NCBI GenBank assembly: GCA_963664405.1
Contig: OY761158.1
Span: 2,944,001-3,008,000, forward strand
Direction of reading: 5' to 3'
Length of the DNA: 64,000 nt
Source: Thermoanaerobaculia bacterium
Lineage (GTDB): Bacteria > Acidobacteriota > Thermoanaerobaculia > Multivoradales > Multivoraceae
In this document: positions 2,111 through 55,632 of the stretch, in pieces
Layout of the letters: each line of letters opens with the position of its first letter
Position numbering within the stretch: position 1 is the first letter of the stretch
Program-made: the position numbers and the translations under genes
The notes under the pieces: generated by a model
The model's database searches: none
What the model was told of the DNA's origin: nothing
Seen by the model: the letters and a program-made list of their open reading frames with translations, nothing else

Positions 2111-3229
2111 ATGTCGCGCACTCTACTCGCCCTTTTCTGTTCCGCCATTCTGGTGGGGGTCGCTCCGTTCATGCGGGTCCTTCAAGCGTGGGTGCGCAAA
2201 CAGAGCCACGGAGAGTTCGTGACCTGGATGGCCGTCTTCTTCGGGGTCATGATTCTTGCCGTGCTGGTGCTAGTTGTTGTTCGCATCCGAGAGCATCGCC
2301 TCCGCCGTTATGGCCTGCTCATTGTGGCGCTCGCTCTCATGTCTCTGCAACTCTTCGGCCTGAATCGCGACGATCCCCGTGTCAACGCCGTCGAGAGGAT
2401 TCACTTTCTCTTTTACGGCGGCATTGCCTACCTCTACTTTGCAGCCTTCCGGCGGCGTGGCGTGCTCAACGCAGTCCTTCTGGCATTCGGTGCCTCTTTG
2501 ATCGTGGCGGTGATGGACGAGTCGGTGCAGTGGTTTTTCGCCAATCGAACCGGCGAGGTCATGGACGTCCTTCTCAACGCTTACGCGACCGTGGTCGGGC
2601 TTCTGGTGAGTCTGGCTTTCGATGTGCGAGGCGCGCAGGGTTCCGCTCGTCCGAAGCTAGAACTGCGGCTCATGGGTCGCATGCTCGCCTGCGATCTCGT
2701 CTTGGTCGCCGCCTTCATTCACTTCGCTCATCTCGGCTACTCGCTCGAGGATGAGGGCATCGGCCGCTTTCGCTCGTATTTCACTCTCGAGCAGTTGGAA
2801 GAGATCGGCGAAGCTCGACTGCGCAGTTGGGCGGAAGAGAAGCCCTGGCCGGAGCGCTCGCTCGATAGGGAAGACCAGTATCGCCGCGAAGCCGAGCGAC
2901 GGGTTCAGCACCGCAATGCCTCCTTCGAGCGTGGCGATTTCTACCAGGCGTGGAAAGAGAATCTGATTCTCGAGAAGTACTACCAGCCGGTCCTGAAGCT
3001 GGAAGAGATGGGTGCTCGGAAGGGTATGTACCGTTTCTCGCCGACCAATTTGGAGCAGCTCGAGGCGAGCAGACCGCGTGGCGATCTCTACCCTTACGAC
3101 AGCCCCGCCGGAAGGGGAGTGGTGTGGGTGCGGCCGGGGAAGGGGGTGTTGTGGGTGGTGACAGTGTTGTTGGTGGTTGTGGTGTTGGCGCTGACGCGGG
3201 GGAGGGCAGAAGTAAGGAGTGAGGAGTAA
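2111..3229 (+). CDS. VanZ-domain membrane protein
   Basis: ERIHFLFYG...DESVQWFFANRTGEVMDVLLN VanZ-type motif; several TM segments; stop codon lies inside the repeat arm. Confidence 0.7.
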   Translation: MSRTLLALFCSAILVGVAPFMRVLQAWVRKQSHGEFVTWMAVFFGVMILAVLVLVVVRIREHRLRRYGLLIVALALMSLQLFGLNRDDPRVNAVERIHFLFYGGIAYLYFAAFRRRGVLNAVLLAFGASLIVAVMDESVQWFFANRTGEVMDVLLNAYATVVGLLVSLAFDVRGAQGSARPKLELRLMGRMLACDLVLVAAFIHFAHLGYSLEDEGIGRFRSYFTLEQLEEIGEARLRSWAEEKPWPERSLDREDQYRREAERRVQHRNASFERGDFYQAWKENLILEKYYQPVLKLEEMGARKGMYRFSPTNLEQLEASRPRGDLYPYDSPAGRGVVWVRPGKGVLWVVTVLLVVVVLALTRGRAEVRSEE

Positions 3230-3247
3230 GGAGTGAGGAGTAAGGAG
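3211..3247 (+). repeat. heptamer tandem array (AGTRAGG)x5, left arm of cassette 1
   Basis: AGTAAGG AGTGAGG AGTAAGG AGTGAGG AGTAAGG AG read directly. Confidence 0.95.
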
Positions 3248-3290
3248 CTTGGGATGCGAGGTGGATGGCGGCACTTTCGTCTTCTAGGTT

Positions 3291-3680
3291 GTGGACAGCG
3301 GTCTTCCCTTCGCTCGGAGCTTCGAGGATCTGGTGGTGTACCAGAGCGCGCTTCGCGTGAGCGAGAGAATCTTTGAGGTCACGAAAAGGTTTCCCCGTGA
3401 AGAGCGCTACTCGCTCACGGATCAGATCCGACGTGCTTCAAGGAGTATTGGTGCCCAGATCGCTGAGGCGTGGGGCAAGAGGCGCTACGAGCGTCACTTC
3501 GTCTCCAAGATCTCCGACGCTGACGCCGAGAGTCTAGAGACTCAGCACTGGCTGCGCGTGGCCAGACTGTGTGGTTATCTCGAGGAAGGCGAAGCGAACG
3601 CTTTGCACGACAGCCTAGACGAGATCGGGAAAATGCTTCGCTCCATTACCCTCCAAGCGTCCAGTTTCTGCCGAAAGTAG
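3291..3680 (+). CDS. four-helix-bundle protein (23S rRNA IVS protein / Avd-like family)
   Basis: SFEDLVVYQ...FPREERYSLTDQIRRASRSIGAQIAEAWGKRRY...SLETQHWL...CGYL family signature; 129 aa. Confidence 0.9.
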   Translation: MDSGLPFARSFEDLVVYQSALRVSERIFEVTKRFPREERYSLTDQIRRASRSIGAQIAEAWGKRRYERHFVSKISDADAESLETQHWLRVARLCGYLEEGEANALHDSLDEIGKMLRSITLQASSFCRK

Positions 3681-3701
3681 CGAGGCGTGGGGAACCAACC
3701 T

Positions 3702-3764
3702 ACCCACTCCTTACTCCTTACTCCTCACTCCTCACTCCTTACTCCTCACTCCTCACTTCCCACT
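3702..3764 (-). repeat. heptamer tandem array (CCTYACT)x7 plus 2 degenerate units, right arm of cassette 1
   Basis: Reverse complement of the 3211-3247 units; contains the ggt stop codon. Confidence 0.95.
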
Positions 3765-5509
3765 CCCACCGCTCCCCCGCCACGACGCGGGTCCGCAACA
3801 CCGATCCAGCCACCGCCTACACGCATGATCGCAGCGATGTCCCCGCTGTACCCGTCACGCTGTTCGAGCGTATGGCCGAAGGCTTCGAGCTCTCCCACGG
3901 TCTCCTCGCTCAGCCCGCCCTGCTCGTAGAAGACGAGGTCGGGAAGGGCCTGGTGGTGGACTCGGGGCGCAGCTACCGCCTCACCGAGGCTCATGCCATG
4001 GTCGAGCACGTTGGAGAGGACGTGGAAGACCGAGGTGATGATGGTCGACCCTCCCGAAGTTCCGACGACCATCAACAGCTCGCCTTGAGGGCTCTCTACG
4101 ATCGTCGGCGTCATCGATGAGAGCATTCTCTTCCCCGGTGCAATCGCGTTCGCTTCTCCCTGCACCAATTGGAACTGGTTCGGCGATCCCGGCTTGGCAG
4201 CGAAGTCGTCCATCTCGTTGTTGAGCAGGAAGCCCGCCCCGGTCACCGTGACACCGTTGCCGTAAGACGAGTTGAGGGTCACTGTCACTGCCGCCGCACG
4301 TCCTTCAGCATCGACCACCGAATAGTGTGTCGTCGACTCGCTCTCGCGCTCGTAGGCAACGACTGGAGTCTCGCCGGCACGCCCAGGTTGGATCCGAGAA
4401 CGGAGCTCTGTGGCGTACTCATCGGAAAGCATTCTCTCCAACGGTAGATCGACAAAATCGGAATCGCCTAGATGAAGATTGCGTTCGAGGAAGGCCCAGC
4501 GCATCGCCTCGGCCTCGACGTGCACCAGCTCGCCCGAGCCGAATGGGGGGAGGTTTTCGTAACCTTGCAAGATGTTCAAGATCAGAGCCAGCGTGACTCC
4601 TCCCGATGATGAGGGGGGCATGGACCACAGCAGGTGGTCTCGGTAGCGCACCCTCACCGGCTCTCGCCAAACCGCCTCATAGGCAGTCAGGTCCTGGTGG
4701 TTGATGAGCCCACCGCCTCTCGTCATCTCGGCCACCAAGAGATCCGCGGTTTGGCCGTTGTAGAACTCCTGCGCGCCCTCGTTGGCGATTCGAGTGAGAG
4801 TCTTCTCGAGGTCGGGCTGGGCCCATCGGTAGCCTGGCTGCGGCGCCTCGCCGTCGGGAAGGAATTGGCGTGCCGAAGGCTCGAAACGTTCCAGTCGAGA
4901 CTTCCCGTCGGCGAGGTGGCTGGAGCGCAGTTCGTCTATCTCGTGGCCACGGGCGAGTGAGATCGCCGGCTCGACCAGGTCGGCCCAGGGCAGGGTTGCG
5001 TAGTGCTGGTGCATCTCCGAAAAGCCGGCGACCGATCCCGGCACTCCGCTGGCCCGATGCCCGATTCGACTGTCCTGGGTGAGCTCGCCGTCGGCGTCGA
5101 GATACATGTCTCGGCTGGCGCCTGCCGGTGCGGTCTCTCGGAAGTCGAGAGCGTGAACCGCGCCGTCGTCCTCTCGATAGACGAGGAAGCCGCCGCCGCC
5201 CAGATTGCCTGATTCGGGCAGCACCACGGCGAGTGCGAAGCCGACAGCTACCGCTGCGTCGATGGCGTTGCCCCCCTGCTCGAGGATCTTGGCCCCTACC
5301 GCGCTCGCCAGCGGATGCCCACTGACCACCATCCCTTCGGTCGCCTCCACTGGCCGGGTGCGCTCGAGCAGAGACCAGCCGCTCGGAAACAACGGGTCAT
5401 CCACCCGTTCGTGCTGTGGCTTCTCGTGCTCGCGACAGGCCGGCACTGCTGCCGCCACGACCAGTAGGACGACGAGCCAGCGGAGGTGCGTGCTAGTGTT
5501 TGGTGACAC
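3746..5509 (-). CDS. ggt: gamma-glutamyltransferase, probable lipoprotein
   Basis: GGNAIDAAVA, DFRETAP, catalytic TTHYSVVD, LNNEMDDF, PGKRMLSSMTP, GTSGG; GTG 5509 with GGGAGG SD; lipobox-like VPAC. Confidence 0.93.
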   Translation of the reverse strand: MSPNTSTHLRWLVVLLVVAAAVPACREHEKPQHERVDDPLFPSGWSLLERTRPVEATEGMVVSGHPLASAVGAKILEQGGNAIDAAVAVGFALAVVLPESGNLGGGGFLVYREDDGAVHALDFRETAPAGASRDMYLDADGELTQDSRIGHRASGVPGSVAGFSEMHQHYATLPWADLVEPAISLARGHEIDELRSSHLADGKSRLERFEPSARQFLPDGEAPQPGYRWAQPDLEKTLTRIANEGAQEFYNGQTADLLVAEMTRGGGLINHQDLTAYEAVWREPVRVRYRDHLLWSMPPSSSGGVTLALILNILQGYENLPPFGSGELVHVEAEAMRWAFLERNLHLGDSDFVDLPLERMLSDEYATELRSRIQPGRAGETPVVAYERESESTTHYSVVDAEGRAAAVTVTLNSSYGNGVTVTGAGFLLNNEMDDFAAKPGSPNQFQLVQGEANAIAPGKRMLSSMTPTIVESPQGELLMVVGTSGGSTIITSVFHVLSNVLDHGMSLGEAVAAPRVHHQALPDLVFYEQGGLSEETVGELEAFGHTLEQRDGYSGDIAAIMRVGGGWIGVADPRRGGGAVGVGSEE

Positions 5510-5566
5510 AGATACCTCCCGCAGAGCGTTGACTACACGATCGCAACGAGACCAGAGCTCGCGACC

Positions 5567-6670
5567 ATGCGACTGCCTTCTCTGACCATCGGAATCGAAG
5601 AAGAGTACCAGATCATCGACCCCGCTACGGGGGAGCTCAAGTCCTACGTTCAGGAGCTTTTGGAGCAGGGTCGATGGGTGCTGAAGGACCAGATTCAGGC
5701 CGAGCTGATGCAGTCGCAGATCGAGGTGGGAAGCCGGATCTGCCACAACGTCAAAGAGGCCAGAGCCGAGATGGTCCGTCTGCGAAGCTCGGTGTGGGAA
5801 CTGGCCGAAGAGAACGGGTTGAAGATGGCGGCGGCGAGCACCCATCCCTTCTCTCAGTGGTCGGATCAACGTGTCTCGGCCGGCGAGCGCTACAGCAAGC
5901 TCCAGGAAGACTTCGGCGACGTGGCCCGCCGTCTGTTGATCTTCGGCATGCACATCCACATCGGCATCGAAGACCGGGAGCTTCTGATCGACGTCATGAA
6001 CCAGGCGCAGTACTTCCTGCCTCACGTGCTGGCGCTCTCCACCAGCTCGCCGTTCTGGCACGGCCGCCACACCGGGCTCAAGTCCTACCGCTCTGTCGTC
6101 TTCGAGAACCTGCCACGCTCCGGGCTAGCTCCCACGTTCAAGTCCTGGGCGGAGTACGAAAGCTTCATCGACACTTTGATCAAGACCAATTGCATCGATG
6201 AGGCCACCAAGATCTGGTGGGATGTGCGGCCGCACCCCAAATTCAGCACTCTCGAGTTCCGAATCTGCGACATCTGCACGCGCATAGACGACGCGATCTG
6301 CATTACCGCGCTCCTGCAGGCGATTGTCGCCAAGCTCATCCAGCTGCGCTGGAACAACACTTCGTGGCGTCTCTACCCGCGCCACCTCATCACCGAAAAC
6401 AAGTGGCGGGCGGTGCGCTACGGCATCGACGGTAAGTTGGTCGACTTCGGCAAGCAGCAGGAAGTGCCGGTGCGAGAGCTACTGCCCGAGCTCATCGAGA
6501 TCCTCGACGACGTGCTCGACGAGCTCGACGTGCGCGAAGAAGTCAACTACGTGCATCGCATCCTCGAAGAGGGAACCAGTGCCGATCGTCAGCTCAGGGT
6601 CTTCGAGGAGACCGGGGATCTCGGTGCCGTCATCGACCACCTCGCGGAGGAGAGTCGGGAGGGGTTTTGA
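5567..6670 (+). CDS. ybdK: carboxylate-amine ligase, YbdK/GCS2 (glutamate-cysteine ligase 2) family
   Basis: IGIEEEYQIIDP, IFGMHIHIG, SPFWHGRHTGLKSYR, WWDVRPHP..TLEFRICD. Confidence 0.9.
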   Translation: MRLPSLTIGIEEEYQIIDPATGELKSYVQELLEQGRWVLKDQIQAELMQSQIEVGSRICHNVKEARAEMVRLRSSVWELAEENGLKMAAASTHPFSQWSDQRVSAGERYSKLQEDFGDVARRLLIFGMHIHIGIEDRELLIDVMNQAQYFLPHVLALSTSSPFWHGRHTGLKSYRSVVFENLPRSGLAPTFKSWAEYESFIDTLIKTNCIDEATKIWWDVRPHPKFSTLEFRICDICTRIDDAICITALLQAIVAKLIQLRWNNTSWRLYPRHLITENKWRAVRYGIDGKLVDFGKQQEVPVRELLPELIEILDDVLDELDVREEVNYVHRILEEGTSADRQLRVFEETGDLGAVIDHLAEESREGF

Positions 6671-6840
6671 GGAAGTGAGGAGTGAAGAAGTGAAGAAGTG
6701 AAAGAGTGAGAGAAGGGTAGTGGCTCACTCAAACTGAGCCACTACCGAGAGAAGGGAGTGGTGTACTTGACTCATCTCCTCGACAACTGCCCGCTTTGTC
6801 TCCTTCCTTTCATTCCTTCACTTTTTCACTCTCTCACTTC
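6671..6840. repeat. inverted pair of 7-8 nt tandem arrays (purine arm 6671-6715, pyrimidine arm 6801-6840) with a 12-bp hairpin at 6716-6746
   Basis: AGTGAGG AGTGAAGA AGTGAAGA AGTGAAAG AGTGAGAG versus CCTTCACT TTTTCACT CTCTCACT; GGTAGTGGCTCA-7nt-TGAGCCACTACC. Confidence 0.85.
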
Positions 6841-6891
6841 CCCAGAACCTGGTGCGAGGTTGAGGGCGGCTGGTTCGTCTCTTATGGGTAG

Positions 6892-7301
6892 ATGACGGAA
6901 CGAGGCTCTTCCTTATGCACGGCGTTTCGAGGATCTGGTGGTGGTACCAGAGTGCTCTTTGCGTCAGCCAAGAGATCTTCGAGACAACGAAGAGGTTCCC
7001 GTTGGAAGAGCGCTACTCGCTGACGGATCAGATCCGACGGGCGTCAAGAAGCGTAGGTGCCCGGATTGCCGAGGCATGGGGCAAAAGGCGCTAACAGCCG
7101 CCACTTCATCTCCAAGATCTCCGACGCCATCGCGAGAGTCTCGAGGCTCAGCACTGGCTCCGTGTAGCCAGAAACTGCGGCTATCTCGAAGAACGCGAGG
7201 CGGACGCCCTCCTCTACACGCTTGACGAGATCGGGCAGATGCTCCGCTCGATGATTCGCCAAGCGCCCAGCTTCTGCCAACCGAGTGAGAGTGGGAAGTG
7301 A
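6892..7301 (+). pseudogene. frameshifted four-helix-bundle gene, paralog of 3291-3680
   Basis: Reassembled frames: ALPYARRFEDLVV/YQSALCVSQEIFETTKRFPLEERYSLTDQIRRASRSVGARIAEAWGKRR/YSRHFISKISDA/RESLEAQHWLRVARNCGYLEE...FCQPSESGK*; at least 3 indels. Confidence 0.9.
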
Positions 7302-7449
7302 GAGAGTAAAAGAGTAAAAGAGGGAAAGAGAAAAGAGCGAAAGGGTAAGAGACTTCCTCGCACTTCGTTGCTCTTTCACTCTCTTACTTCTGACCTTCCC
7401 TCCCTTACTCTTTTACTCTTTCACTTCTTCACTCTTTCACTTCTTCAAC
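7284..7449. repeat. second inverted pair of octamer arrays (purine arm ~7284-7350, pyrimidine arm ~7371-7449)
   Basis: AGTGAGAG AGTAAAAG AGTAAAAG... versus CTTTTACT CTTTCACT TCTTCACT CTTTCACT. Confidence 0.85.
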
Positions 7450-8427
7450 TCACCCAATACCCAGCCTCGCCCCGTAAGACTCCTCCCCCGACGACCACCG
7501 CGCCTCAACCGCATCGAGTACGTCCTTCTCGATCGCCGGACCGCCGAGATTGACGATCTCGCGGATGCCGGTCGGGCTGGTGACGTTCACTTCGGTCAGG
7601 AAGTCGCCGATGATGTCGACGCCGGCAAAGACGATGCCCATGGCGCGCAGGAGGGGCCCTACGCTGTTGCAGATCTCGAGGTCGCGCTCGCTCAGCTCGG
7701 TCTTGACGGCGACGCCGCCGGCGTGAAAATTGGCCCGGGCCTCGGTGGCCGATGGGACGCGGAGGACGGCTCCCTTGGCGACACCTTCGACCAGGATCAC
7801 TCGCTTGTCGCCCTCGCGCACTTCAGGGATGTAGCGCTGGGCCATGATCAGTTCTGTCTCTTTCTGGGTCGCCATCTCCAAGATCGCCTTGACGTTGCGG
7901 TCGTGCGGAGTGAGATGGAAGACGCCCTCACCCCCGGCGCCGCCGAGTGGCTTGATGATCATCTCGCCCTCGAGCTCCTCGCGGAAGGCGAGGAGCTCGG
8001 CGATGCGACTGGTGACCATGGTCCGCGGGCACAGATCGGGAAAGCGCAGAGCGACCAGCTTCTCGTTGGCGTCGCGCAGGGCCAGAGGGTCATTGACCAC
8101 CAGTGCCGGCGGCTGTACCAGAGAAAGCAGATGGGTGGCGTAGAAGAAGCGTAGATCGAAGGGCGGGTCTTTACGCATCCAGACCACGTCGAACTCGTCG
8201 AGGAAGCGGGACTGCTCTTCGCCTAGCAAGTACCAGTTCGGGCCGTGGGAGACCTCGATCGTCGAAACATGGGCGAAGGGGCGGCCCCCGTCGCGCGTAC
8301 CGAGGCCGTCTACCTGACAGATGGAGCTCTGGTGGCCGCGTGCGGAGGCCTCGCGCATGAAGGAGATGGTGGTGTCTGCGTCGGGCAGGAGACGCTCCGG
8401 GGGATCGATGATGAAAAGGTGATTCAT
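7450..8427 (-). CDS. gshB: glutathione synthetase
   Basis: MRKDPPFD, NEKL, KPLGGAGGEGVF, GDKRV, RANFHAGG, TEVNVTSPTG. Confidence 0.93.
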   Translation of the reverse strand: MNHLFIIDPPERLLPDADTTISFMREASARGHQSSICQVDGLGTRDGGRPFAHVSTIEVSHGPNWYLLGEEQSRFLDEFDVVWMRKDPPFDLRFFYATHLLSLVQPPALVVNDPLALRDANEKLVALRFPDLCPRTMVTSRIAELLAFREELEGEMIIKPLGGAGGEGVFHLTPHDRNVKAILEMATQKETELIMAQRYIPEVREGDKRVILVEGVAKGAVLRVPSATEARANFHAGGVAVKTELSERDLEICNSVGPLLRAMGIVFAGVDIIGDFLTEVNVTSPTGIREIVNLGGPAIEKDVLDAVEARWSSGEESYGARLGIG

Positions 8428-27460: not shown

Positions 27461-29179
27461 CTAGTTCTCGTCCGGAATCGTGTAAGTTGTTTTGCGTCAG
27501 TGGCTTGCGAGGGAGGCAGGGCTGGTAATTCTCCGCGGAGCTTGATAGAGTCTAGGTGACGAAACCGTTGATTCTAAATAGCTTACGCCGAGAAGGAGCC
27601 AGCCCGAGATGCGACAAGCCGTCAGTATTCAGCCTGATCTCACCGAAAAGTGGCTCGATCTGGACCATGCCAAAGAACTCGAAGCGATCTCTCGCCTCCT
27701 CGACAGGGATCCTAGAATCTACGAGCTTGCGTGGCAAGACCTGCAGCTACAGGCTGGAGGCAAAGGCCAGAGCACCGGGGCGCGAGGCATGTCGGGCGAG
27801 CAGGTGGTCCGGGCCCTGATCGTGAAGCAGATGGGCGGTTTCAGTTATTCGGAGCTCGCCTTCCACCTTGAGGATTCCCGTAGCTACCGGACCTTCTGCC
27901 GCCTCGGCCTCGTCGGGTGGACGCCGAAGAAGTCGACGCTGGCCCAGAACATCAAGGCACTGACGTGCGCCACCCTGGAGGCGATTCACAAGCGAATCGT
28001 GGCCCTGGCACTCGACACGGGAGTGGAGCGAGGCAACAGAGTCCGGGTGGACGCCACCGTGGTGGAGTCCAACATCCATCATCCGACCGACTCCGAGCTG
28101 CTCTGGGATTGCGTTCGGGTGCTTACCCGATTGCTCGCAAGGGCGCGAGGCCTGCTGGGCAGCGAGCACTTCTCGTTCCGCGACCGATCGCGGCAAGCCA
28201 AGAGGCGGCGCAAGAAGATCAACGACCCGCGCACCAAGGATATGCGGCTCCAGCCCTACCGCGACCTGATCCAGATCACCGAGAAAGTCCAAGATTCAGC
28301 CAAGGCGGCCCGGAATGTGCTCGCCAAGCAGGGGCCTTCCCAGGAATCCGGCGCCCGTGGACTCCTCGAGGAGCTCGACTGTTTCCTCGAGCGCACCGCC
28401 ACGGTCATCGACCCGACACGCCGTAGAATTCTCGACGGCGAAACGGTCCCCGCGAGCGAGAAGATCGTCTCGATCTTCGAGGAGCACACCGCGATCATTC
28501 GCAAAGACGCCAGAGAAACGCTCTACGGCCACAAGGTCTGCCTCACCGCCGGCTCCTCGTCCCTTGTCCTGGATCTCGTGATCCTCCAGGGAAACCCGCC
28601 CGACTCCAGCCTCGCCACGACCATGGTCCAGCGCCACATCGCCAACCATAGCCAACCCCCGCGCCAGATCGCCTTCGACGGCGGGTTCGCCTCCAAAGCC
28701 AATCTCGAAGAGATCAAGCAGATGGGAGTGCACGATGTCGTCTTCAGCAAGGGCCGGGGCCTTCAGGTCAGTGACATGGCCCAGAGCTCCTGGGTCTACA
28801 AGCGGCTGCGCGACTTTCGCGCCGGTATCGAAGGCATCATCTCCTTTCTCAAACGCGCCTTTGGACTCAAGCGATGCACTTGGAGATCCTGGCCTTCCTT
28901 CCAGAGCTACGCTTGGGCGAGTGTGATCACCAGCAACCTCCTCGTCACCGCAAGGCACCTCATCAACTGAAATAGGGCATCGCACACCGTTCGATTCACC
29001 CCCAGCACTGCTGGAGAAACGGAGCACCAACCCCGCAATACGCCGTCAAAGCAGCCGAGCCTTCCTGATCCAGCGAACCAGGTACAGAAAACCTGGAATC
29101 GCACGCAACAGGCCTCGAAAAAAAGCTCGATGAGACCCGGACACCACTCTATTTCGTCCGTTTCCGGACACGACACTAG
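27461..29179 (+). mobile_element. insertion sequence copy 1 (ISNCY/IS5-like), CTAG target
   Basis: CTAG-TTCTCGTCCGGAAT ... TTTCCGGACACGACA-CTAG imperfect terminal IRs; duplicated 13681 bp downstream. Confidence 0.9.
27609..28970 (+). CDS. DDE transposase
   Basis: RVDATVVESNIHHPTDS, EKIVSIFE, YGHK, AFDGGF, FRAGIEGIISFLKR. Confidence 0.92.
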   Translation: MRQAVSIQPDLTEKWLDLDHAKELEAISRLLDRDPRIYELAWQDLQLQAGGKGQSTGARGMSGEQVVRALIVKQMGGFSYSELAFHLEDSRSYRTFCRLGLVGWTPKKSTLAQNIKALTCATLEAIHKRIVALALDTGVERGNRVRVDATVVESNIHHPTDSELLWDCVRVLTRLLARARGLLGSEHFSFRDRSRQAKRRRKKINDPRTKDMRLQPYRDLIQITEKVQDSAKAARNVLAKQGPSQESGARGLLEELDCFLERTATVIDPTRRRILDGETVPASEKIVSIFEEHTAIIRKDARETLYGHKVCLTAGSSSLVLDLVILQGNPPDSSLATTMVQRHIANHSQPPRQIAFDGGFASKANLEEIKQMGVHDVVFSKGRGLQVSDMAQSSWVYKRLRDFRAGIEGIISFLKRAFGLKRCTWRSWPSFQSYAWASVITSNLLVTARHLIN

Positions 29180-41141: not shown

Positions 41142-42859
41142 CTAGTTCTCGTCCGGAATCGTGTAAGTTGTTTTGCGTCAGTGGCTTGCGAGGGAGGCAG
41201 GGCTGGTAATTCTCCGCGGAGCTTGATAGAGTCTAGGTGACGAAACCGTTGATTCTAAATAGCTTACGCCGAGAAGGAGCCAGCCCGAGATGCGACAAGC
41301 CGTCAGTATTCAGCCTGATCTCACCGAAAAGTGGCTCGATCTGGACCATGCCAAAGAACTCGAAGCGATCTCTCGCCTCCTCGACAGGGATCCTAGAATC
41401 TACGAGCTTGCGTGGCAAGACCTGCAGCTACAGGCTGGAGGCAAAGGCCAGAGCACCGGGGCGCGAGGCATGTCGGGCGAGCAGGTGGTCCGGGCCCTGA
41501 TCGTGAAGCAGATGGGCGGTTTCAGTTATTCGGAGCTCGCCTTCCACCTTGAGGATTCCCGTAGCTACCGGACCTTCTGCCGCCTCGGCCTCGTCGGGTG
41601 GACGCCGAAGAAGTCGACGCTGGCCCAGAACATCAAGGCACTGACGTGCGCCACCCTGGAGGCGATTCACAAGCGAATCGTGGCCCTGGCACTCGACACG
41701 GGAGTGGAGCGAGGCAACAGAGTCCGGGTGGACGCCACCGTGGTGGAGTCCAACATCCATCATCCGACCGACTCCGAGCTGCTCTGGGATTGCGTTCGGG
41801 TGCTTACCCGATTGCTCGCAAGGGCGCGAGGCCTGCTGGGCAGCGAGTACTTCTCGTTCCGCGACCGATCGCGGCAAGCCAAGAGGCGGCGCAAGAAGAT
41901 CAACGACTCGCGCACCAAGGATATGCGGCTCCAGCCCTACCGCGACCTGATCCAGATCACCGAGAAAGTCCAAGATTCAGCCAAGGCGGCCCGGAATGTG
42001 CTCGCCAAGCAGGGGCCTTCCCAGGAATCCGGCGCCCGTCGACTCCTCGAGGAGCTCGACTGTTTCCTCGAGCGCACCGCCACGGTCATCGACCCGACAC
42101 GCCGTAGAATTCTCGACGGCGAAACGGTCCCCGCGAGCGAGAAGATCGTCTCGATCTTCGAGGAGCACACCGCGATCATTCGCAAAGACGCCAGAGAAAC
42201 GCTCTACGGCCACAAGGTCTGCCTCACCGCCGGCTCCTCGTCCCTTGTCCTGGATCTCGTGATCCTCCAGGGAAACCCGCCCGACTCCAGCCTCGCCACG
42301 ACCATGGTCCAGCGCCACATCGCCAACCATAGCCAACCCCCGCGCCAGATCGCCTTCGACGGCGGGTTCGCCTCCAAAGCCAATCTCGAAGAGATCAAGC
42401 AGATGGGAGTGCACGATGTCGTCTTCAGCAAGGGCCGGGGCCTTCAGGTCAGTGACATGGCCCAGAGCTCCTGGGTCTACAAGCGGCTGCGCGACTTTCG
42501 CGCCGGTATCGAAGGCATCATCTCCTTTCTCAAACGCGCCTTTGGACTCAAGCGATGCACTTGGAGATCCTGGCCTTCCTTCCAGAGCTACGCTTGGGCG
42601 AGTGTGATCACCAGCAACCTCCTCGTCACCGCAAGGCACCTCATCAACTGAAATAGGGCATCGCACACCGTTCGATTCACCCCCAGCACTGCTGGAGAAA
42701 CGGAGCACCAACCCCGCAATACGCCGTCAAAGCAGCCGAGCCTTCCTGATCCAGCGAACCAGGTACAGAAAACCTGGAATCGCACGCAACAGGCCTCGAA
42801 AAAAAGCTCGATGAGACCCGGACACCACTCTATTTCGTCCGTTTCCGGACGCGATCTAG
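41142..42859 (+). mobile_element. insertion sequence copy 2, direct repeat of copy 1
   Basis: Near-identical to 27461-29179; (CTAG)3 at both ends. Confidence 0.9.
41290..42651 (+). CDS. DDE transposase, copy 2
   Basis: 453 aa; three substitutions seen versus copy 1 (H>Y, P>S, G>R). Confidence 0.92.
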   Translation: MRQAVSIQPDLTEKWLDLDHAKELEAISRLLDRDPRIYELAWQDLQLQAGGKGQSTGARGMSGEQVVRALIVKQMGGFSYSELAFHLEDSRSYRTFCRLGLVGWTPKKSTLAQNIKALTCATLEAIHKRIVALALDTGVERGNRVRVDATVVESNIHHPTDSELLWDCVRVLTRLLARARGLLGSEYFSFRDRSRQAKRRRKKINDSRTKDMRLQPYRDLIQITEKVQDSAKAARNVLAKQGPSQESGARRLLEELDCFLERTATVIDPTRRRILDGETVPASEKIVSIFEEHTAIIRKDARETLYGHKVCLTAGSSSLVLDLVILQGNPPDSSLATTMVQRHIANHSQPPRQIAFDGGFASKANLEEIKQMGVHDVVFSKGRGLQVSDMAQSSWVYKRLRDFRAGIEGIISFLKRAFGLKRCTWRSWPSFQSYAWASVITSNLLVTARHLIN

Positions 42860-48627: not shown

Positions 48628-48758
48628 GTCTGGACAACGGACGGCGCGAGGGACACTCGACCCTCGTTTCCGAAGCTCACGGCGCATCCGTCGGCGCCTT
48701 CTGCCCGTTATGTCGTTGGCTAGGCGCCCCCGCGCTCGTCGCCACATTCACGGATGGT

Positions 48759-48924
48759 CTAGACCAGCGTTTCCAAAGTTCGCGCACATATCTCGGCCCC
48801 TTCTGTCCGCTGGCGGCGTTTCGCCTCCTCGACATATTCCCCAATATGCCTGCGTCGGCGCGCCTGGCCAGCGAACAGAATGACCTCGAGCTATTGCACA
48901 CGAACTTTGGAAACGCTGGTCTAG
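48759..48924. mobile_element. MITE-like element with 20-bp perfect TIRs flanked by CTAG
   Basis: CTAG-ACCAGCGTTTCCAAAGTTCG ... CGAACTTTGGAAACGCTGGT-CTAG. Confidence 0.75.
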
Positions 48925-48941
48925 GCAGGTAGTGGATTGAG

Positions 48942-49547: not shown

Positions 49548-49574
49548 TAGCTCTCATTTTCAGGAGCCCAGGCG

Positions 49575-49601
49575 TGAAACAACGGGGAGTGCACTATCGT
49601 A
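49575..49601 (+). promoter_or_regulatory. SigW-like ECF promoter TGAAAC-N17-CGTA
   Basis: Between the sigma gene and the next gene; spacer is one nt longer than the B. subtilis SigW consensus. Confidence 0.55.
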
Positions 49602-49625
49602 GGGCAGTACGGAGCGAGAGTTAAC

Positions 49626-50153: not shown

Positions 50154-51531
50154 GAGTTTCGCACCCAAAACCCGGCGGGGCGCCCGGTCCGACTGGCTGG
50201 TCTTGCTCGGCTTCATTTTGCTGCTCTCTTCGCTTGCTCCGGTGTTGGGGCAACCGCCCCCCTCGCCTGAGCAGGTCCCTGACGAAGCCGTTCAGCAGGA
50301 GATCGACGAGGCTCTGGATGAGATCAGCGAGGAGATCGAAGAGAGTCTGAGACTCAGTGAGGAGGCAGTCGAAGAGATCAGCTCGGAGAGGGAACGGGTC
50401 CGCGAGATCCGCGAGCGTGTCCGTCGCCGCCTTCGCGAGGCGCCCAGTCGCTCAGACTCGAAAGTGGCGTTTGGCAGCAGCATTCACATCGAAAGCGACG
50501 AAGTAGGCCAAGACCTGGTCGCAATCGGTGGCAGCATCCGAGTCGACGGCGACATCTATGGCGATGCGATAGCTGTGGGCGGGTCGATACGGGTCGACGG
50601 CAGTGTCACCGGCGACGTCGTCGCTGTGGGTGGCGGCGTCAAGCTCGGCGCCGAGGCGGAGGTGCTTGGCGAAGTGACCTCGGTGGGCGGGCGAGTCGAC
50701 CTCGCCGAGGGCGCCAGGGTCCACGGCAGCGTCAATGAGGTCTCGATTGGCAAGTCTATATTCCCCCTGAATTTCGGCGATGAAGATCTTGGCATAGGAG
50801 TGGACGACGGAGAGCACCATTGGAGCATGTCTCCGTTCGGTTTCAGTCGCTGGGTCGGGCTGGGTTGGAGCCTGAGCGGACTCGTGCTCCTCATTCTGCT
50901 CACCTCTCTGGTGCAGTTGATCGGCGCCGGCACGGTTGAGCGCGTGCGACTCAAGGCGGTGGCCTCTCCCTGGGCCTCTGGTCTCGTGGGTCTTGCCATC
51001 CAGGTCCTGTTCGTGCCCACGCTGGTTGTGGTCTGCCTGATCCTGACCATTTCGATCGTAGGCATCCCCCTCTTATTCTTGCTGCCCTTTGTCGTCCTGG
51101 CGTTTCTGATCGCCTTTCTGGTCGGCTACACCGGCTCGGCGATGGCAGTGGGCCGATGGGCAGAGGCTCGTTTTAACTGGGGATCGTCGGGGTCGTTTCT
51201 CGTGCTGCTCTCGGGCGTGCTTCTTATTCGGGTTCTCTCCTTCGTCGGCAAGATCTTCGAGTCTCTCTCCGGCTTCTTGTGGATCTTCGCGCTGATGTTT
51301 GGGATCGTCGGCTTCCTCGTCCGCTATGCGGCATGGACCGTCGGCCTCGGCGCGGTGTTTTTGAGCAGCCTCCGCGGTGGAAACGCGTTGTCGGTGCCAC
51401 AGATTGAGGCTCCTGAGCCGCTGCTACCGCCGCTGCCGGAGGAGCCGGCTCCCGACTCGGGAATCGGCGATGCCGAGCTAAACTCAGAGCGCGATGAGGC
51501 GGCGCGGAAAAATGACGAGGAGGGCGCCTAA
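50137..51531 (+). CDS. membrane protein with bactofilin-like (polymer-forming) beta-helix repeats
   Basis: Signal/TM, coiled coil, AIGGSIRVDG..GD repeats, multi-TM C-terminus. Confidence 0.7.
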   Translation: MWKRRRSFAPKTRRGARSDWLVLLGFILLLSSLAPVLGQPPPSPEQVPDEAVQQEIDEALDEISEEIEESLRLSEEAVEEISSERERVREIRERVRRRLREAPSRSDSKVAFGSSIHIESDEVGQDLVAIGGSIRVDGDIYGDAIAVGGSIRVDGSVTGDVVAVGGGVKLGAEAEVLGEVTSVGGRVDLAEGARVHGSVNEVSIGKSIFPLNFGDEDLGIGVDDGEHHWSMSPFGFSRWVGLGWSLSGLVLLILLTSLVQLIGAGTVERVRLKAVASPWASGLVGLAIQVLFVPTLVVVCLILTISIVGIPLLFLLPFVVLAFLIAFLVGYTGSAMAVGRWAEARFNWGSSGSFLVLLSGVLLIRVLSFVGKIFESLSGFLWIFALMFGIVGFLVRYAAWTVGLGAVFLSSLRGGNALSVPQIEAPEPLLPPLPEEPAPDSGIGDAELNSERDEAARKNDEEGA

Positions 51532-51553
51532 GAAAAGCGCCCGGAGGCAGCGG

Positions 51554-52414
51554 CTAGCGACCCCCGTGCCGTACCAGCTCATATCGAACGTCGAGAGGCG
51601 CTTCGCTCTCTTCCCCGACCCGGACGCGCCCGTCCTCGACCAGAGCCTGGAGATGAGCCAACAGGGACCATCCGGCAGCGGTGTGTAGCTTCTTGTCGAC
51701 GTCGGCATAGATGTGGGAAACCATCTCGGGAATCCGGTCGAGGCCGGTCTCGAGTGCTTCGATGGCTTGCCGGGTACGCTCTACGCGATGGTTGTATAGC
51801 TCGTCGATGCGCTCCAGTGGATTGTCGATCGGCAGCCCGTGGGCGGGGTACATGCGCGCGAAGCTGAAGGAGCGGAGCTTGTCGAGAGACGCCAGGTAGT
51901 CGTTGAGGCTGCCCCCTGGCGGTGCGATCACCGACGTGGACCATCCCATGACATGGTCGCCACTCAACAAGGTGCTCTCCTCTCGTAACAGGTAGGAGAT
52001 GTGGTCTTCGGCGTGTCCCGGGGTATGGATTGCCTCGAGGGTCACCCCGTCAGCGTGTAGGAGCTCGGCATCACGGACCTTCTTCTGAGGTCGGTAGTCG
52101 CCACAGTCGGCGAAGCCGAGTGTTGGAGCTCCGTAGTGCGCGGCGAGACGGGGAGCCAACGGCCAGTGGTCCTGGTGATGGTGGGTCGGAATGATCGCCA
52201 ATACCTTGGCCGCGCCTACGGCATCGACGAGGTTGTCGAAGTGATCGTCGCCGTCGGGCCCCGGATCGAGGATGAAAATCTCCCGCTCGCCAACCAGATG
52301 GGTGTTGGTACCGACGCCGGTGAAGATCGATGGGTTGTCCTGAGTGATACGTCGCACTCGTGCCGAGAGTCGGACCACCTCTCCTGCAGCCGGCATCTGT
52401 CGTGAGCTTGCCAT
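51554..52414 (-). CDS. MBL-fold metallo-hydrolase (LACTB2-like)
   Basis: GTNT, THHHQDH, TPGHAEDH, SGDH, PAHG. Confidence 0.88.
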   Translation of the reverse strand: MASSRQMPAAGEVVRLSARVRRITQDNPSIFTGVGTNTHLVGEREIFILDPGPDGDDHFDNLVDAVGAAKVLAIIPTHHHQDHWPLAPRLAAHYGAPTLGFADCGDYRPQKKVRDAELLHADGVTLEAIHTPGHAEDHISYLLREESTLLSGDHVMGWSTSVIAPPGGSLNDYLASLDKLRSFSFARMYPAHGLPIDNPLERIDELYNHRVERTRQAIEALETGLDRIPEMVSHIYADVDKKLHTAAGWSLLAHLQALVEDGRVRVGEESEAPLDVRYELVRHGGR

Positions 52415-53238
52415 TACCCGGCTGCCTCCTCGTCCCAGCCGTCGTCCCCCGGCAAGACGGCCTGGAGTCCGCCTTCACGGTGCACCATGCGAGGCTGAAT
52501 AGTTTCGATCTCGCGCCGCCGGAGTCCCGCCGCCTCGGCCTTACCGGTCGAGGAGAAATCGCTAAGCGTCATTAGGTTGCGCAAGGTGGGAAAGATGATG
52601 TTCCACTCCTTTCGCTCAGCCTTGGCGAGCGCCTCTTTGGGCGTCACCCAGGCGGAGTCGGTCAGCTCGCCGTCGTCGGGCCTTGCGGCCTGGCTCTGGG
52701 GCATTGTGGCAAGAAAGAAGCGGGTGTCGAAGCGTATCGGTGATTTCTCCGGTGTTATCCAGTGAGCCCAGTAGTGCATGCGATCGCTGGCAAGCTTCCA
52801 GCTCTCCTTGGCGGCGAGCTCGAGGAAGTCGACCCTTCCCCCGTTCAGAGCCTGGCGTTGATCGTCGAGTCTGGCGGCGGTTGCGGGCTCCGCCGCGTCG
52901 AGCAGCCGACCCTCGCCGTCATAGGCGAGTAGTACTCCGGCCTCTTCGAAGCACTCTCGTATGGCGGCCACGTAGTAGGCGAGCCCACCACTCTCGAGAT
53001 GCAGACGACTCGAAGCCTGCCGATCGTCGAGGCCGATACAGAGCTCTTCGGCGTGACTGTCCTCAGGGTCGACTCTGCCACCTGGAAAGACGTGTGCCCC
53101 GCCGACAAATCTAGACTTTCTGTGGCGCTCGATCATGAAGACTTGCGGCCCCTCATCGCTATCGCGCAGCAGGATGACCGTAGCCGCGCTACGCGCCTCC
53201 GCGGCCTCCTCCCCGGCGTCAGTTTCAACGGAGGTCAA
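52414..53238 (-). CDS. NUDIX hydrolase (NUDT19-like)
   Basis: AATVILLRD, VFPGG, AAIRECFEEAGV, WITP..RFDTRFF, IFPT. Confidence 0.88.
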   Translation of the reverse strand: MTSVETDAGEEAAEARSAATVILLRDSDEGPQVFMIERHRKSRFVGGAHVFPGGRVDPEDSHAEELCIGLDDRQASSRLHLESGGLAYYVAAIRECFEEAGVLLAYDGEGRLLDAAEPATAARLDDQRQALNGGRVDFLELAAKESWKLASDRMHYWAHWITPEKSPIRFDTRFFLATMPQSQAARPDDGELTDSAWVTPKEALAKAERKEWNIIFPTLRNLMTLSDFSSTGKAEAAGLRRREIETIQPRMVHREGGLQAVLPGDDGWDEEAAG

Positions 53239-54545
53239 AATCGTGAGCTCCCGGCCCGAAGCCCGTCGAGCTCCTCGAGCGTGGCGTCCGAGGCTGGCCG
53301 GACTCCCTGAAGCCGTTGAGCCGTCCTTTCGGTAGCGCGCATCGCGCGCAGCACATTGAGACCGCAGACCTTCTTCACTTCGTTGGCGGTGAAGCCTCGA
53401 GACAGAAGCTCGGCCAACAGGTCGGGCATGCGTGTAACGTCTTCGAGACCGCGAGGCACTGAGGTGATGCCGTCGAAATCCGAACCGATACCGATGTGGT
53501 CGATGCCTGCTACGTGGCGGATGTGCTCGATGTGATCGGCGACGTCGTCCAGGCTTGCGGCCATGGGCGGGTGTTTGGCCCTGAAGCGCTGTAGAGCCTC
53601 CTCGATCGCCTGCGAGTCCCCAGGGTGCATCTGAAGCAGTCTCTCTTGTTCCACACTCAGGGCTTCGGAGACCTGTCTGACCGCGTTGTTCACATAGTTC
53701 GGAACGAAAGTGACCATGACGACGCCGCCGTTCGCGGGCAGACGCCGCAGCACCTGATCGGGTACGTTGCGGGGGTGTGGAGTAACCGCGTAGGCCGAGG
53801 AGTGAGAGAAGATGACGGGGCTCTCGCTCACGTCGAGAGCGTCGTTCATGGTTTCGGCCGAGACGTGCGAGAGATCTACGAGCATGCCGATGCGGTTCAT
53901 TTCCCGAACGACCTCTTTGCCGAAAGAGCTGAGACCTCCGACCGCCGCGTCGTCGGTCGCCGAATCGGCCCAGGCGATGTTCTGCGAGTGGGTTAGCGTC
54001 ATATAGCGAGCACCTGCTCGAAAGAGCTGACGCAGCACCGCTAGGGAGCTTTCGATCGAGTGGCCGCCCTCCATGCCGATGAGCGAGGCCAGTTTGCCGT
54101 TACCGTGGATGCGCTCTACATCGTCGGCTGAAAACGCGAGCTCGAGCGAGTCGGGGTACTTCGCCGCCAAGCGATAGACCACGTCGATCTGTTCGAGGAC
54201 GCTTCGCGCGGCCCCCGGACCATCGAGATCGGCCGGAATGTAGACAGACCAGAATTGTCCGCCGATGCCGGATCGCTCGAGACGGCGAAGGTCGGTGTGC
54301 ATCGGCGGCTCGAGGTCGGTCGTGTTGCGGAAGTCGATGCGCTCGAGATGGTTGCCGACCCTCGTTCGGTACTGCCACGGGACATCGTTGTGGCCGTCGA
54401 TGAGTGGCACCTCGGCGAGGATCTCACGCACCAGCCGAAGCTCCTCGGCGCGATCTTCGCTCCCCCACGCGCTGCCCGCCAGAGTAACCGCGATGGCGCC
54501 TAGAAAGATCCGCCATCGGTGCTTTGATGTCGAGCTCTGCTGCAT
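53235..54545 (-). CDS. secreted membrane dipeptidase (M19)
   Basis: LIDGHND, GGQFWSVY, MEGGH, YMTLTH, DLSHVS, FSHSS, GSDFDG. Confidence 0.9.
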   Translation of the reverse strand: MQQSSTSKHRWRIFLGAIAVTLAGSAWGSEDRAEELRLVREILAEVPLIDGHNDVPWQYRTRVGNHLERIDFRNTTDLEPPMHTDLRRLERSGIGGQFWSVYIPADLDGPGAARSVLEQIDVVYRLAAKYPDSLELAFSADDVERIHGNGKLASLIGMEGGHSIESSLAVLRQLFRAGARYMTLTHSQNIAWADSATDDAAVGGLSSFGKEVVREMNRIGMLVDLSHVSAETMNDALDVSESPVIFSHSSAYAVTPHPRNVPDQVLRRLPANGGVVMVTFVPNYVNNAVRQVSEALSVEQERLLQMHPGDSQAIEEALQRFRAKHPPMAASLDDVADHIEHIRHVAGIDHIGIGSDFDGITSVPRGLEDVTRMPDLLAELLSRGFTANEVKKVCGLNVLRAMRATERTAQRLQGVRPASDATLEELDGLRAGSSRF

Positions 54546-54623
54546 GCGCGTCTCGCGAGACTCGGCCGATCTTAGCGTACGCCCGACCCGGTCAGACGCC
54601 CGGCCTCTGCTACTCTCTGGGCG

Positions 54624-55349
54624 GTGCGGACGCTGGGTATCGTCGGTTTCGGTAGCTTCGGTCGTTTCATGGCCCAGCATCTGCGACCTCACCTCGAGGT
54701 CGTTGTCTACGACTGCCTCGAGGTGGCTGATCTGGCGACAGAGGTCGGCGTTCGTAGCGCTTCTCTGGTCGAGGTTGCCGCGAGTGAGATCCTGGTGCTG
54801 GCGGTACCGGTGCAGAATATGGAGGAAGTTCTCGCTGAGCTGTCCGCCATGCCGAAGCTCCCCGAGCTTGTCCTCGACGTGGGGTCGGTCAAGGTCAAAC
54901 CTCTCGAGCTGATGCCGCGATACCTACCGGAAGAGGTCGAGATCGTCGGCACCCATCCGATGTTCGGGCCCCAGAGTGGGCGGGATGGGATTGCTGGGCT
55001 CAAGATCGTTCTGTGCCCGGCTCGTTGTAGCCGGCTCGATGAGATCCGTTCTTTTCTGGAGCGAAAGCTGCAGCTCGAGGTCCTGGAGCTGACACCGGCG
55101 CAGCACGATGCCGAGATCGCCTACGTCCAGGGGCTGACCCATTGGATCGCCAAGGCACTGAGAGAGATCAACCTCCCAGACCCCCGCCTGGCGACGCCGG
55201 CCTACCTCCACCTCCTCAAGATCGAAGAGATCTTGAGAGAAGACTCACCAGCCCTCTTTCGCACCATCCAGGAGATGAATCCGTTTATCGCTCAGGCGCG
55301 AGAGGAGCTGTTGGCGAAGCTCGAGGAGCTGCAGGGTGGAGAGGAGTGA
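54624..55349 (+). CDS. tyrA: prephenate/arogenate dehydrogenase (TyrA family)
   Basis: GFGSFG, DVGSVK, THPMFGP, HD...QGLTH. Confidence 0.8.
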   Translation: MRTLGIVGFGSFGRFMAQHLRPHLEVVVYDCLEVADLATEVGVRSASLVEVAASEILVLAVPVQNMEEVLAELSAMPKLPELVLDVGSVKVKPLELMPRYLPEEVEIVGTHPMFGPQSGRDGIAGLKIVLCPARCSRLDEIRSFLERKLQLEVLELTPAQHDAEIAYVQGLTHWIAKALREINLPDPRLATPAYLHLLKIEEILREDSPALFRTIQEMNPFIAQAREELLAKLEELQGGEE

Positions 55350-55632
55350 GAGAGTAAGAGAGTGAGGAGTAGGGAGTAGGGAGTGAAACAGTTGCGGTGG
55401 GCAGAGTGCAGCCGCGGCTGTGTCGGTTGGAAACGGCGGCACCTGAGTGCAGCGAACGAAAGAGCCTAAAACGGCTCGGGGGGGCTCCGATAGGCCCTAC
55501 CCTCTGATCTTCGAGGACCTCCGTTCACTCCTCACTCCTCACTCTCCCACTCCTCACTCTCTTACTCTCCTACTCCTTACTCTTTTACTCTTTTACTCTT
55601 TTACTCTTTCACTCTTTCACTCTCTTACTCTC
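55345..55632. repeat. inverted pair of mixed 7/8-nt tandem arrays (purine arm 55345-55387, pyrimidine arm 55525-55632) around a ~137-bp spacer
   Basis: AGTGAGAG AGTAAGAG AGTGAGG AGTAGGG AGTAGGG versus CCTCACT / CTTTTACT / CTTTCACT units; both flanking stop codons lie inside the arms. Confidence 0.9.

Follow-up and report, generated by a model that had tools for sequence, protein, structure and literature searches.

Two kinds of described bacterial sequence come closest to the elements considered here: intervening sequences (IVSs) of 23S ribosomal RNA (rRNA) that carry an open reading frame (ORF), and long simple-sequence repeats with heptamer units. ORF-bearing IVSs are found in Leptospira, Coxiella burnetii, and other bacteria, are located in helix 25 or helix 45, and encode S23p; the S23p family, i.e., that of the 23S rRNA intervening-sequence protein, is PF05635/TIGR02436. 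Long simple-sequence repeats of this type have also been cited for Calothrix (in PMC4692102), where they are referred to as STRR. The IVS of Coxiella burnetii has the S23p ORF in the loop of a stem that serves as an RNase III substrate, and ahead of the ORF, the heptamer GACAGAT is repeated three to four times in tandem, with a copy number that differs among strains (PMC4990558). In many bacteria, the most frequent long simple repeats have heptamer units, which occur in hundreds of arrays (PMC4692102; PMC4679880), including GGGAATC in Xanthomonas and GGGGA(T/C)T in Nostoc (PMC4692102) and TAACTGA in Beggiatoaceae and cyanobacteria (PMC4679880). Furthermore, 70 and 75 convergent inverted heptamer pairs are described for two Xanthomonas genomes (PMC4692102; PMC4679880). 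PF05635 genes have also been reported within cas operons, in a passage that does not comment on repeats (PMC3936711). No description of a PF05635 gene between heptamer arms outside rRNA was found in the literature, supplements and subscription journals being beyond the reach of the search. Here, we describe three loci, referred to as A, B, and C, in a 64,000-nucleotide (nt) stretch of the genome of a Thermoanaerobaculia bacterium (contig OY761158.1, positions 2,944,001 to 3,008,000; hereafter, the window), where inverted arms built of tandem 7- or 8-nt units abut host stop codons and, at locus A, enclose an intact PF05635 gene. The elements are a free-standing form of the ORF-bearing rRNA IVS joined to a known kind of repeat, so the type has precedent, and the suggestion of an undescribed system in an initial annotation of the window is not upheld. 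The three loci probably constitute one family of hairpin elements with inverted 7-/8-nt arrays, comprising gene-less miniatures and an IVS-like promoterless cassette, which would be looped out of a read-through transcript.

All three loci consist of a purine arm, whose 7- or 8-nt units contain an AGT core, followed downstream by its reverse complement. Tandem Repeats Finder detects the arrays of locus A at 3211-3247 (AGTAAGG, period 7) and 3705-3766 (CACTCCT, period 7), those of locus B, with period 8, at 6668-6715 and 7303-7352 (purine) and at 6817-6839 and 7407-7447 (pyrimidine), and those of locus C, with periods 7 and 8 mixed, at 55344-55384 (purine) and 55525-55632 (pyrimidine). These coordinates agree with the AGT-core arm pairs and the unit lengths given in the initial annotation, and its assignment of the three loci to one repeat family likewise stands. 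The overall extents are 3202-3770 for locus A, 6668-7447 for locus B, and 55338-55636 for locus C. Local alignment of arm against arm yields scores of 68 (A), 49/57 (B), and 60 (C), and RNA folding pairs the arms with z-scores, relative to shuffled sequences, of -7.4 (A), -13.3 (B), and -6.4 (C). Locus B had been described as one arm pair; the arms are indeed present, but the locus is composite, and its minimum-energy fold comprises two gene-less hairpins, one on each side of a pseudogene. The loop of the first of these hairpins contains a perfect 12-bp hairpin at 6716-6746, which may belong natively to the 3′ end of the GCS2 gene on the left. A terminator search identified no consensus hairpin-U terminator in loci A and B, as the initial annotation had stated for all three loci; the spacer of locus C contains one weak terminator-like hairpin with a T-rich tail on the minus strand (55477-55462). 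This 128-nt spacer shows no BLAST similarity to the core of the four-helix-bundle gene or to the rest of the genome. Locus C was also considered as a gene remnant on account of a 12-nt stretch, ttcgaggacctc, which precedes the right arm and resembles the gene start; with the negative BLAST result for the spacer against the gene core, the resemblance is attributed to chance. An Rfam scan of the window matched no family, rRNA included.

The gene enclosed at locus A encodes a protein matching PF05635 with an E-value of 4e-32 and TIGR02436 with an E-value of 9e-29, and all eight residues that are invariant in a 14-sequence alignment are present. Its closest solved structures are 2GSC and 2RLD, with five chains each (pentameric). 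Scores against the Avd families remain below the cut-off (PF22296, E-value 2e-11; NF033474, E-value 3e-11 and 43.5 bits vs a cut-off of 80). The gene copy of locus B is 77.7% identical to that of locus A over 430 nt, leader included, and still matches PF05635 with an E-value of 1e-21, although it has accumulated at least five indels of 1-2 nt and one TAA codon. As judged from their sequences, the intact and decayed copies are true paralogues, and they are the only two PF05635 matches in the whole 6.78-Mb genome. The positions of the arms, genes, and flanking frames are summarized in Table 1.

Table 1. Arms, enclosed genes, and flanking genes of loci A, B, and C (positions within the window).
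Feature	Position	Strand	Remarks
Locus A purine arm	3202..3248		~5 units AGTAAGG/AGTGAGG
Locus A intact four-helix-bundle gene	3291..3680	+	129 aa, PF05635/TIGR02436
Locus A pyrimidine arm	3699..3770		~9 units, reverse complement of left arm
Locus B hairpin 1	6668..6844		purine arm 6668-6720, pyrimidine arm 6800-6844
Locus B decayed four-helix-bundle gene	6853..7278	+	77.7% identical to 3254-3671
Locus B hairpin 2	7282..7447		purine arm 7282-7349, pyrimidine arm 7369-7447
Locus C purine arm	55338..55391		mixed 8- and 7-nt units
Locus C spacer	55392..55519		128 nt, genome-unique
Locus C pyrimidine arm	55520..55636		inner part mirrors left arm; ~8 extra outer units unpartnered
VanZ-domain frame, left of A	1853..3229	+	last codons and TAA stop inside purine arm
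Gamma-glutamyltranspeptidase (GGT), right of A	3746..6070	-	stop and last 4-5 codons inside pyrimidine arm
GCS2 glutamate-cysteine ligase, left of B	5567..6670	+	TGA stop = first bases of array
Glutathione synthetase (GshB), right of B	7450..8427	-	native stop 3 nt from arm
Prephenate-dehydrogenase-like, left of C	54624..55349	+	stop inside purine arm
VCA0040-like, right of C	55617..56681	-	stop inside pyrimidine arm

The same design recurs throughout the genome. Purine windows with at least three AGT cores were collected, and a partner arm was then sought for each; five copies of an unrelated 29-nt repeat and three doubtful short matches (genome positions 129665, 4112394, and 6637433) were left out before counting. 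The scan yielded approximately 28 loci, i.e., 20 pairs, with locus B counted once, and 8 single arrays; approximately 26 of the loci are gene-less, vs two PF05635 genes. The purine arm comes first in 20/20 pairs, and a pyrimidine-first pair was never seen. Such pairs read alike on either strand, and purine-first order on both strands is therefore one property rather than two, though a non-trivial one. At the level of the units, four consecutive copies of AGTRARR occur 11 times in the genome vs 0 for the reversed pattern, and the three-unit version occurs 22 times vs once. The dominant period agrees between partner arms in 19/21 hairpins (p 1e-4), the summed alignment score of partner arms is 930 vs 694 +/- 48 for non-partners, a value reached in 0/20000 shuffles, and the succession of unit variants in one arm is mirrored in its partner (e.g., at genome position 1465034 and at locus C). 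By contrast, unit, period, and arm length differ from locus to locus, and the arms do not derive by copying from a single master. Thus, the mutual match of the two arms of a locus and the fixed purine-first order, both initially described from the window, extend to the whole genome.

With respect to gene context, convergent junctions account for 13 of the 20 pairs and co-directional neighbors for the other 7, and no pair is located between divergent genes; the corresponding background is 19%, 62%, and 19%, respectively. The gene set consisted of crude GC3-based calls over 78% of the genome, with five contexts hand-corrected from the frames; convergent enrichment has p 9e-6 (13/20) with the corrected contexts and p 0.002 (10/20) with the uncorrected calls. 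An exclusive location at convergent junctions, as first proposed, hence holds for the loci of the window and, as an enrichment, for the genome, but not for the 7/20 co-directional pairs or for the single arrays, four of which stand behind stop codons at genome positions 1043228, 1045228, 1713185, and 5189559. In all-against-all and genome BLAST comparisons, the spacers of 18 gene-less hairpins match neither the gene core nor any other site in the genome; apart from self-matches, locus A vs locus B is the only spacer match. Of the intact, decayed, and empty states proposed for one element, the first two are accordingly represented by the paralogues at A and B, whereas descent of the empty state finds no support in these unique spacers. 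No consistent target duplications were found: the longest direct repeat outside the arms averages 3.9 nt vs 4.5 nt at random positions and reaches 7 nt in 2/20 loci, although the fuzzy arm borders could hide short ones. Cargo of the GxxExxY and DUF559 types had been anticipated as well; PF13366 has 0 matches in the genome, and the single match of PF04480 is far from any array, so this expectation is abandoned.

Several further observations concern repeats of this genome. A yajQ-like housekeeping gene of 162 amino acids lies between a purine and a pyrimidine arm that belong to the present family (genome 2278898-2279606); such arms can therefore enclose an ordinary gene. A cluster of 5-6 arrays and hairpins occupies 23 kb (genome 1030750-1053264), and two of its hairpins flank an ankyrin-repeat gene. 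The identical 29-nt purine-rich stretch excluded above occurs at five genome sites, 379561, 404587, and 1786795 on the plus strand and 2485997 and 3941361 on the minus strand, and is probably part of an unrelated multi-copy element. Within the window, a 10-nt unit, CATAGCCAAC, is common to two short tandem repeats at 28637-28657 and 42318-42338, 13.7 kb apart, which may mark a duplicated segment.

Inverted arms around PF05635 genes are not confined to this genome. The 350 nt upstream of each gene were compared with the reverse complement of the 350 nt downstream, with a score of at least 30 taken as positive and with controls shifted by 900 nt. Among 29 Acidobacteriota genomes, inverted arms were found at 25/29 PF05635 genes vs 1/53 controls; 29 of the 30 loci fetched were usable, and the remaining one was too close to a contig end. 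A scan across many phyla was conducted with a five-sequence alignment as the query, and of the best 80 loci, 3 were dropped at contig ends. In these named genomes, which include Bacteroidota, Ignavibacteria, Proteobacteria, Firmicutes, Planctomycetota, Chloroflexota, Cyanobacteria, Verrucomicrobiota, Actinobacteria, and Saccharibacteria, 64/77 PF05635 genes have inverted arms vs 1/135 controls. Sixty of the 64 armed cassettes have a period of 7, both arms have the same period in 61/64, and the G-rich arm comes first in 58/64, with 3 opposite and 3 neutral. The consensus heptamers vary by genome; 67/79 contain AG, most often in the form YAG with G or T as the next base. Furthermore, in 55/88 cassettes vs 76/1330 random positions, a co-directional upstream frame of at least 80 codons ends no more than 15 nt from the left arm, indicating that the cassette usually sits directly behind a host gene pointing the same way; a convergent downstream frame stops at the right arm in 30/88 cassettes. 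Two observations may be added on unit diversity. Around one cassette of another Acidobacteriota genome (L049, G074:C25:68700-71200), arrays of at least four different heptamer units are stacked within 2.5 kb, one array being 179 nt long, and in named genomes, some arm units are equal to or resemble eukaryotic telomere repeats, e.g., TTTAGGG and TTAGGGG (L132, L068, and L126).

The gene and its arms are coupled in sequence as well as in position. Proteins with the same arm unit have an average identity of 61.5% vs approximately 49% for those with unlike units, the observed correlation being reached in 0/2000 Mantel-type shuffles, and some same-unit pairs span two or three phyla. Briefly, the unit AGTGACG is shared by Pyrinomonadaceae and two Verrucomicrobiota, with a protein identity of 65-80%, and the unit CAGGTGT by genomes of a deltaproteobacterium, Acidimicrobiia, and Terriglobia, with a protein identity of 59-70%. 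At a borderline level, the protein column directly following the conserved AEG motif co-varies with base three of the unit (mutual information 0.80 vs 0.78 for the 95th percentile of shuffle maxima); a search for an amino-acid-to-base code returned that one column only. Among 151 sampled Acidobacteriota genomes, a tally that includes two unpublished ones, PF05635 genes are present in 85 and AGT-type three-unit arrays in 32; 30 of these 32 carry PF05635 vs 55 of the 119 without arrays (odds ratio 17, with the p-value overstated because kin are non-independent). Closer to this bacterium, the gene exceeds the cut-off in 1/24 genomes of the same family, and the four-unit AGT pattern occurs in 0/40 related genomes of the same family and order. 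This rarity of gene and arrays among close kin fits acquisition by the present lineage. No array is found behind gshB at 11 loci of the nearest relatives, where GshB identity is 60-72% and synteny is rearranged, such that these relatives provide no exact empty sites, and a metagenome scan with GshB retrieved nothing closer than 73% (13 loci).

Regarding the junctions themselves, clear Pfam matches identify five of the six flanking frames (G_glu_transpept, GCS2, GSH-S, PDH_N, and VCA0040-like), and the sixth has a weak VanZ match. All six genes terminate within an arm or at most 3 nt from one, in agreement with the initial description of arms that start and end at flanking stop codons. In comparison with orthologues, GshB ends in ...RLGIG* here and in ...RLGI* in the nearest relative, and GGT is 4-5 residues longer at its C-terminus; the abutment of stop codons is real since the native C-termini of GshB and GGT lie within 0-5 codons of the arms. 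Among the pairs of the genome, arms facing the 3′ end of a gene are located -32 to +9 nt from its stop. Stop codons are present in all three incoming frames in 17/20 purine arms and in 19/20 pyrimidine arms when reverse-complemented, and any frame that enters such an arm must consequently end there; on the outgoing strand, 15/20 purine arms contain no stop codon. For annotation, the repeats account for the many genes of this genome that end in repeat-encoded residues such as ...SEE. Gene order also differs: in the two closest relatives with these genes (L032 and L033), gshB is directly convergent with ggt, and here, the GCS2 gene and locus B separate gshB from ggt, which faces locus A instead.

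Turnover of these loci is visible between near-identical strains. Contigs from four public runs were aligned to window positions 2600-8400; a query for RNA runs covering these positions listed none. Run X2 differs from the window by a single additional 8-nt unit, located at 7302 in an arm of locus B. Two other studies contributed runs X5 and X8, which contain a strain whose flanks are approximately 99.4% identical. In this strain, 9 nt are deleted where the arm begins at 6673, 6868-7255 has no coverage, and a contig joins 6701 to 7424 through 22 other letters, which are absent from this genome even with 3 mismatches allowed. A plain hairpin in that strain, at the junction occupied here by the composite locus B, would fit these data; because the joint is situated within repeats, it may also derive from another locus of the same strain. 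Three further signals were set aside: a joint of 3230 to 3706 with 11 letters (X8), which may stem from another locus or organism; a joint of 3737 to 7405 (40 letters; X2 and X10), which resembles the arm of locus C and may likewise have another origin; and gaps of X10 in 6868-7255, rejected as evidence of absence owing to low depth.

The reading that we favor starts from features that are observed, i.e., an architecture that is general across phyla, a link between the gene and its arm type, the position at stop codons, and the gain and loss of units together with differing interiors between strains. Locus A would then be a complete cassette, with the four-helix-bundle gene flanked by a 5′ arm rich in G and purines and a 3′ arm rich in C and pyrimidines, directly behind the stop of a co-directional host gene; locus B would be a decayed paralogue of that cassette with a gene-less hairpin on each side; and locus C and approximately 17 further loci of the genome would be gene-less hairpins built from this unit family. 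The cassette would be transcribed when RNA polymerase reads through from the gene upstream, and the arms, looping the insert out of the host transcript, would pair as a stem of 25-60 bp, which RNase III may then cleave by analogy with rRNA IVSs. When the G-rich arm leads, the untranslated RNA that follows the host stop would be C-poor in both directions of transcription and would offer no loading site for Rho, the C-rich arm presumably being paired as soon as it is transcribed. In this genome, TAA, TGA, and TAG codons of the units, in the three incoming frames, would halt ribosomes ahead of the stem. The arms would vary by replication slippage, and their likeness may be kept by selection or by conversion between inverted copies. 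Genes for both RNase III and Rho are present in the genome.

Several points weigh against this reading. Transcription of the cassettes, formation of the stem, and its cleavage are all steps that we infer, and the argument regarding Rho draws only on base composition. The GTG start of the locus A gene at 3291 has, by eye, no obvious ribosome-binding site just upstream. In the minimum-energy fold, the locus B pseudogene is outside any single enclosing stem. Some G-rich units of other genomes, such as AGGGATC, are free of stop codons, implying that the three-frame-stop property is local rather than general. Moreover, because their spacers are unique, the gene-less hairpins are not demonstrably derived from cassettes. 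Finally, mismatches between arms appear as G-U wobbles 134 times in the sense and 136 times in the antisense orientation, alongside 307 transversions, across 88 cassettes, and the wobble counts within this genome are 45 and 44. Wobble asymmetry, sought as a sign of selection at the RNA level, is thus missing, and with symmetric counts, the complementarity of the arms may equally be maintained at the DNA level or be a remnant of inverted duplication.

Of the other explanations, an autonomous/non-autonomous mobile pair, as the initial annotation had suggested by comparison with RAYT/REPIN, is possible, though doubtful. The protein would recognize its own arrays and, alone or with a host enzyme, copy or move cassettes and gene-less hairpins to new stop-codon sites. 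Such a pair would be consistent with the co-variation of arm unit and protein across phyla, the excess of the gene in Acidobacteriota genomes with AGT-type arrays (30/32 vs 55/119), its sporadic occurrence in close kin (above the cut-off in 1/24 of the same family), the approximately 26 gene-less loci vs only two genes, the junction that is filled in one strain and plain in another, and the borderline correspondence between the column after AEG and the third base of the unit. The counts across kin are non-independent, however; no internal sequence is common to the gene-less hairpins, the direct repeats next to the arms do not exceed in length those at random positions (mean 3.9 vs 4.5 nt), arm unit and length change from site to site, and the PF05635 family has no known catalytic site or motif. 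What survives of the RAYT/REPIN proposal is the co-occurrence of array and gene, the covariation of unit and protein, and the plain hairpin in a related strain; unique spacers and the lack of target duplications tell against the remainder. Movement of REPIN-like hairpins in trans by the Y1 (IS200/RAYT-type) transposases of the genome is hardly credible. PF01797, a Y1 transposase family, has 13 matches in the genome, and the hairpin-forming intergenic inverted pairs resemble REPINs, but none of these matches adjoins an array, the arms are tandem arrays of variable unit rather than a conserved palindrome of 20-40 nt, and their partner across phyla is PF05635 and not a Y1 gene. The initial statement that no transposase is recognizable is therefore correct at the loci themselves and not for the genome.

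Two explanations dispense with mobility. Growth in place, in which slippage-prone arrays are tolerated behind stops, inverted neighbors are homogenized by conversion, and the gene merely lands or persists there, is quite unlikely. It would accommodate the hundreds of heptamer arrays, including 70-75 convergent pairs in Xanthomonas, described in two reports (PMC4692102; PMC4679880), as well as the unit-sized indels between strains, the unique spacers, the four single arrays behind stops (genome 1043228, 1045228, 1713185, and 5189559), and the eight unmatched extra units in one arm of locus C. It accounts less well for the concordant period in 19/21 hairpins, the mirrored unit variants of partner arms, pairs located between co-directional genes, inverted arms that are specific to the gene and not to its neighborhood (controls 1/135 and 1/53), and the association of one unit with related proteins in different phyla. 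Selection by the host for 3′-end devices at convergent junctions, i.e., bidirectional terminators without a U-tract, insulators, or mRNA stabilizers, with the gene incidental, is very unlikely. Convergent junctions are enriched and divergent ones absent, loci A and B lack a consensus terminator, and the predicted stems are long and stable, all of which favors it; by contrast, the four-unit AGT pattern occurs in 0/40 relatives of the same family and order, the gshB junction is array-free in 11 relatives, 7/20 pairs are within co-directional gene strings, where termination would be polar, and the interior differs among near-identical strains. Telomere-like repeat addition to two broken ends was also considered and rejected: it would explain the G-rich-first rule, but the mirrored order of unit variants is in better agreement with inverted duplication or conversion.

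The promoterless-cassette reading, which we continue to prefer, bears on three puzzles that have been treated apart, namely the function of PF05635/TIGR02436, the origin of ORF-bearing rRNA IVSs, and the excess of intergenic heptamer repeats. If these were one phenomenon, each could be tested by way of the others: the protein would gain a candidate ligand in its own arms, the repeats would gain a candidate maker or user, and rRNA IVSs would represent just one of many landing sites. The present genome is a useful case, with two gene copies, one intact and one dead, approximately 26 gene-less loci, and a near-identical strain that differs at one junction or more. A bolder proposal, speculative and on balance unlikely, is that the four-helix-bundle protein binds its own heptamer arrays sequence-specifically and that the two jointly form a new class of mobile element without a classical transposase, which installs mirror-image arms at host stops, with or without the gene, and is the source of the heptamer excess in bacteria.

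Comparison with known systems places the elements at the meeting point of two of them. The more distant systems share partial features. Avd of diversity-generating retroelements belongs to a related fold family (PF22296 and NF033474, below the cut-off), whereas the present loci have no reverse transcriptase and no pair of template and variable repeats, and their neighbors are VanZ-like and GGT genes. Miniature inverted-repeat transposable elements are likewise small, non-coding, and dispersed at gene junctions with inverted ends, but the copies described here share no internal sequence and have no consistent target duplications. REP/REPIN-RAYT systems also comprise intergenic hairpin pairs, with many gene-less copies per coding copy and a preference for the 3′ ends of genes; they differ from the present elements, which have no conserved palindrome and no Y1 gene at the loci, whose arms are tandem arrays with a unit and period varying by locus, and whose linked gene encodes a four-helix bundle. 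Long simple-sequence heptamer repeats are closer. They too are head-to-tail intergenic units of 7 nt (5-11 nt) near the ends or starts of genes, with a copy number that varies among strains; those of Xanthomonas form many convergent inverted pairs, and the TAACTGA repeats contain stop codons in all three frames. The difference is that the arrays here are tied to a PF05635 gene, with AGT-core purine units of 7 and 8 nt, and that the terms "S23" and "four helix" have 0 occurrences in the heptamer-repeat papers (PMC4692102; PMC4679880). Compared with rRNA IVSs, the loci of the window are located between protein-coding genes, on stop codons, and not in 23S rRNA, entire arms are arrays of 5-15 units, and gene-less copies are many. 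Nevertheless, the rRNA IVS shares the cargo family PF05635/S23p (intact at locus A, decayed at B, and none at C), terminal inverted repeats that pair into a long stem with the ORF in its loop (as at locus A; at locus B, two hairpins stand beside the ORF), the decay of the ORF in some copies, and, in Coxiella, tandem heptamers of strain-variable copy number in the stem just before the ORF (PMC4990558).

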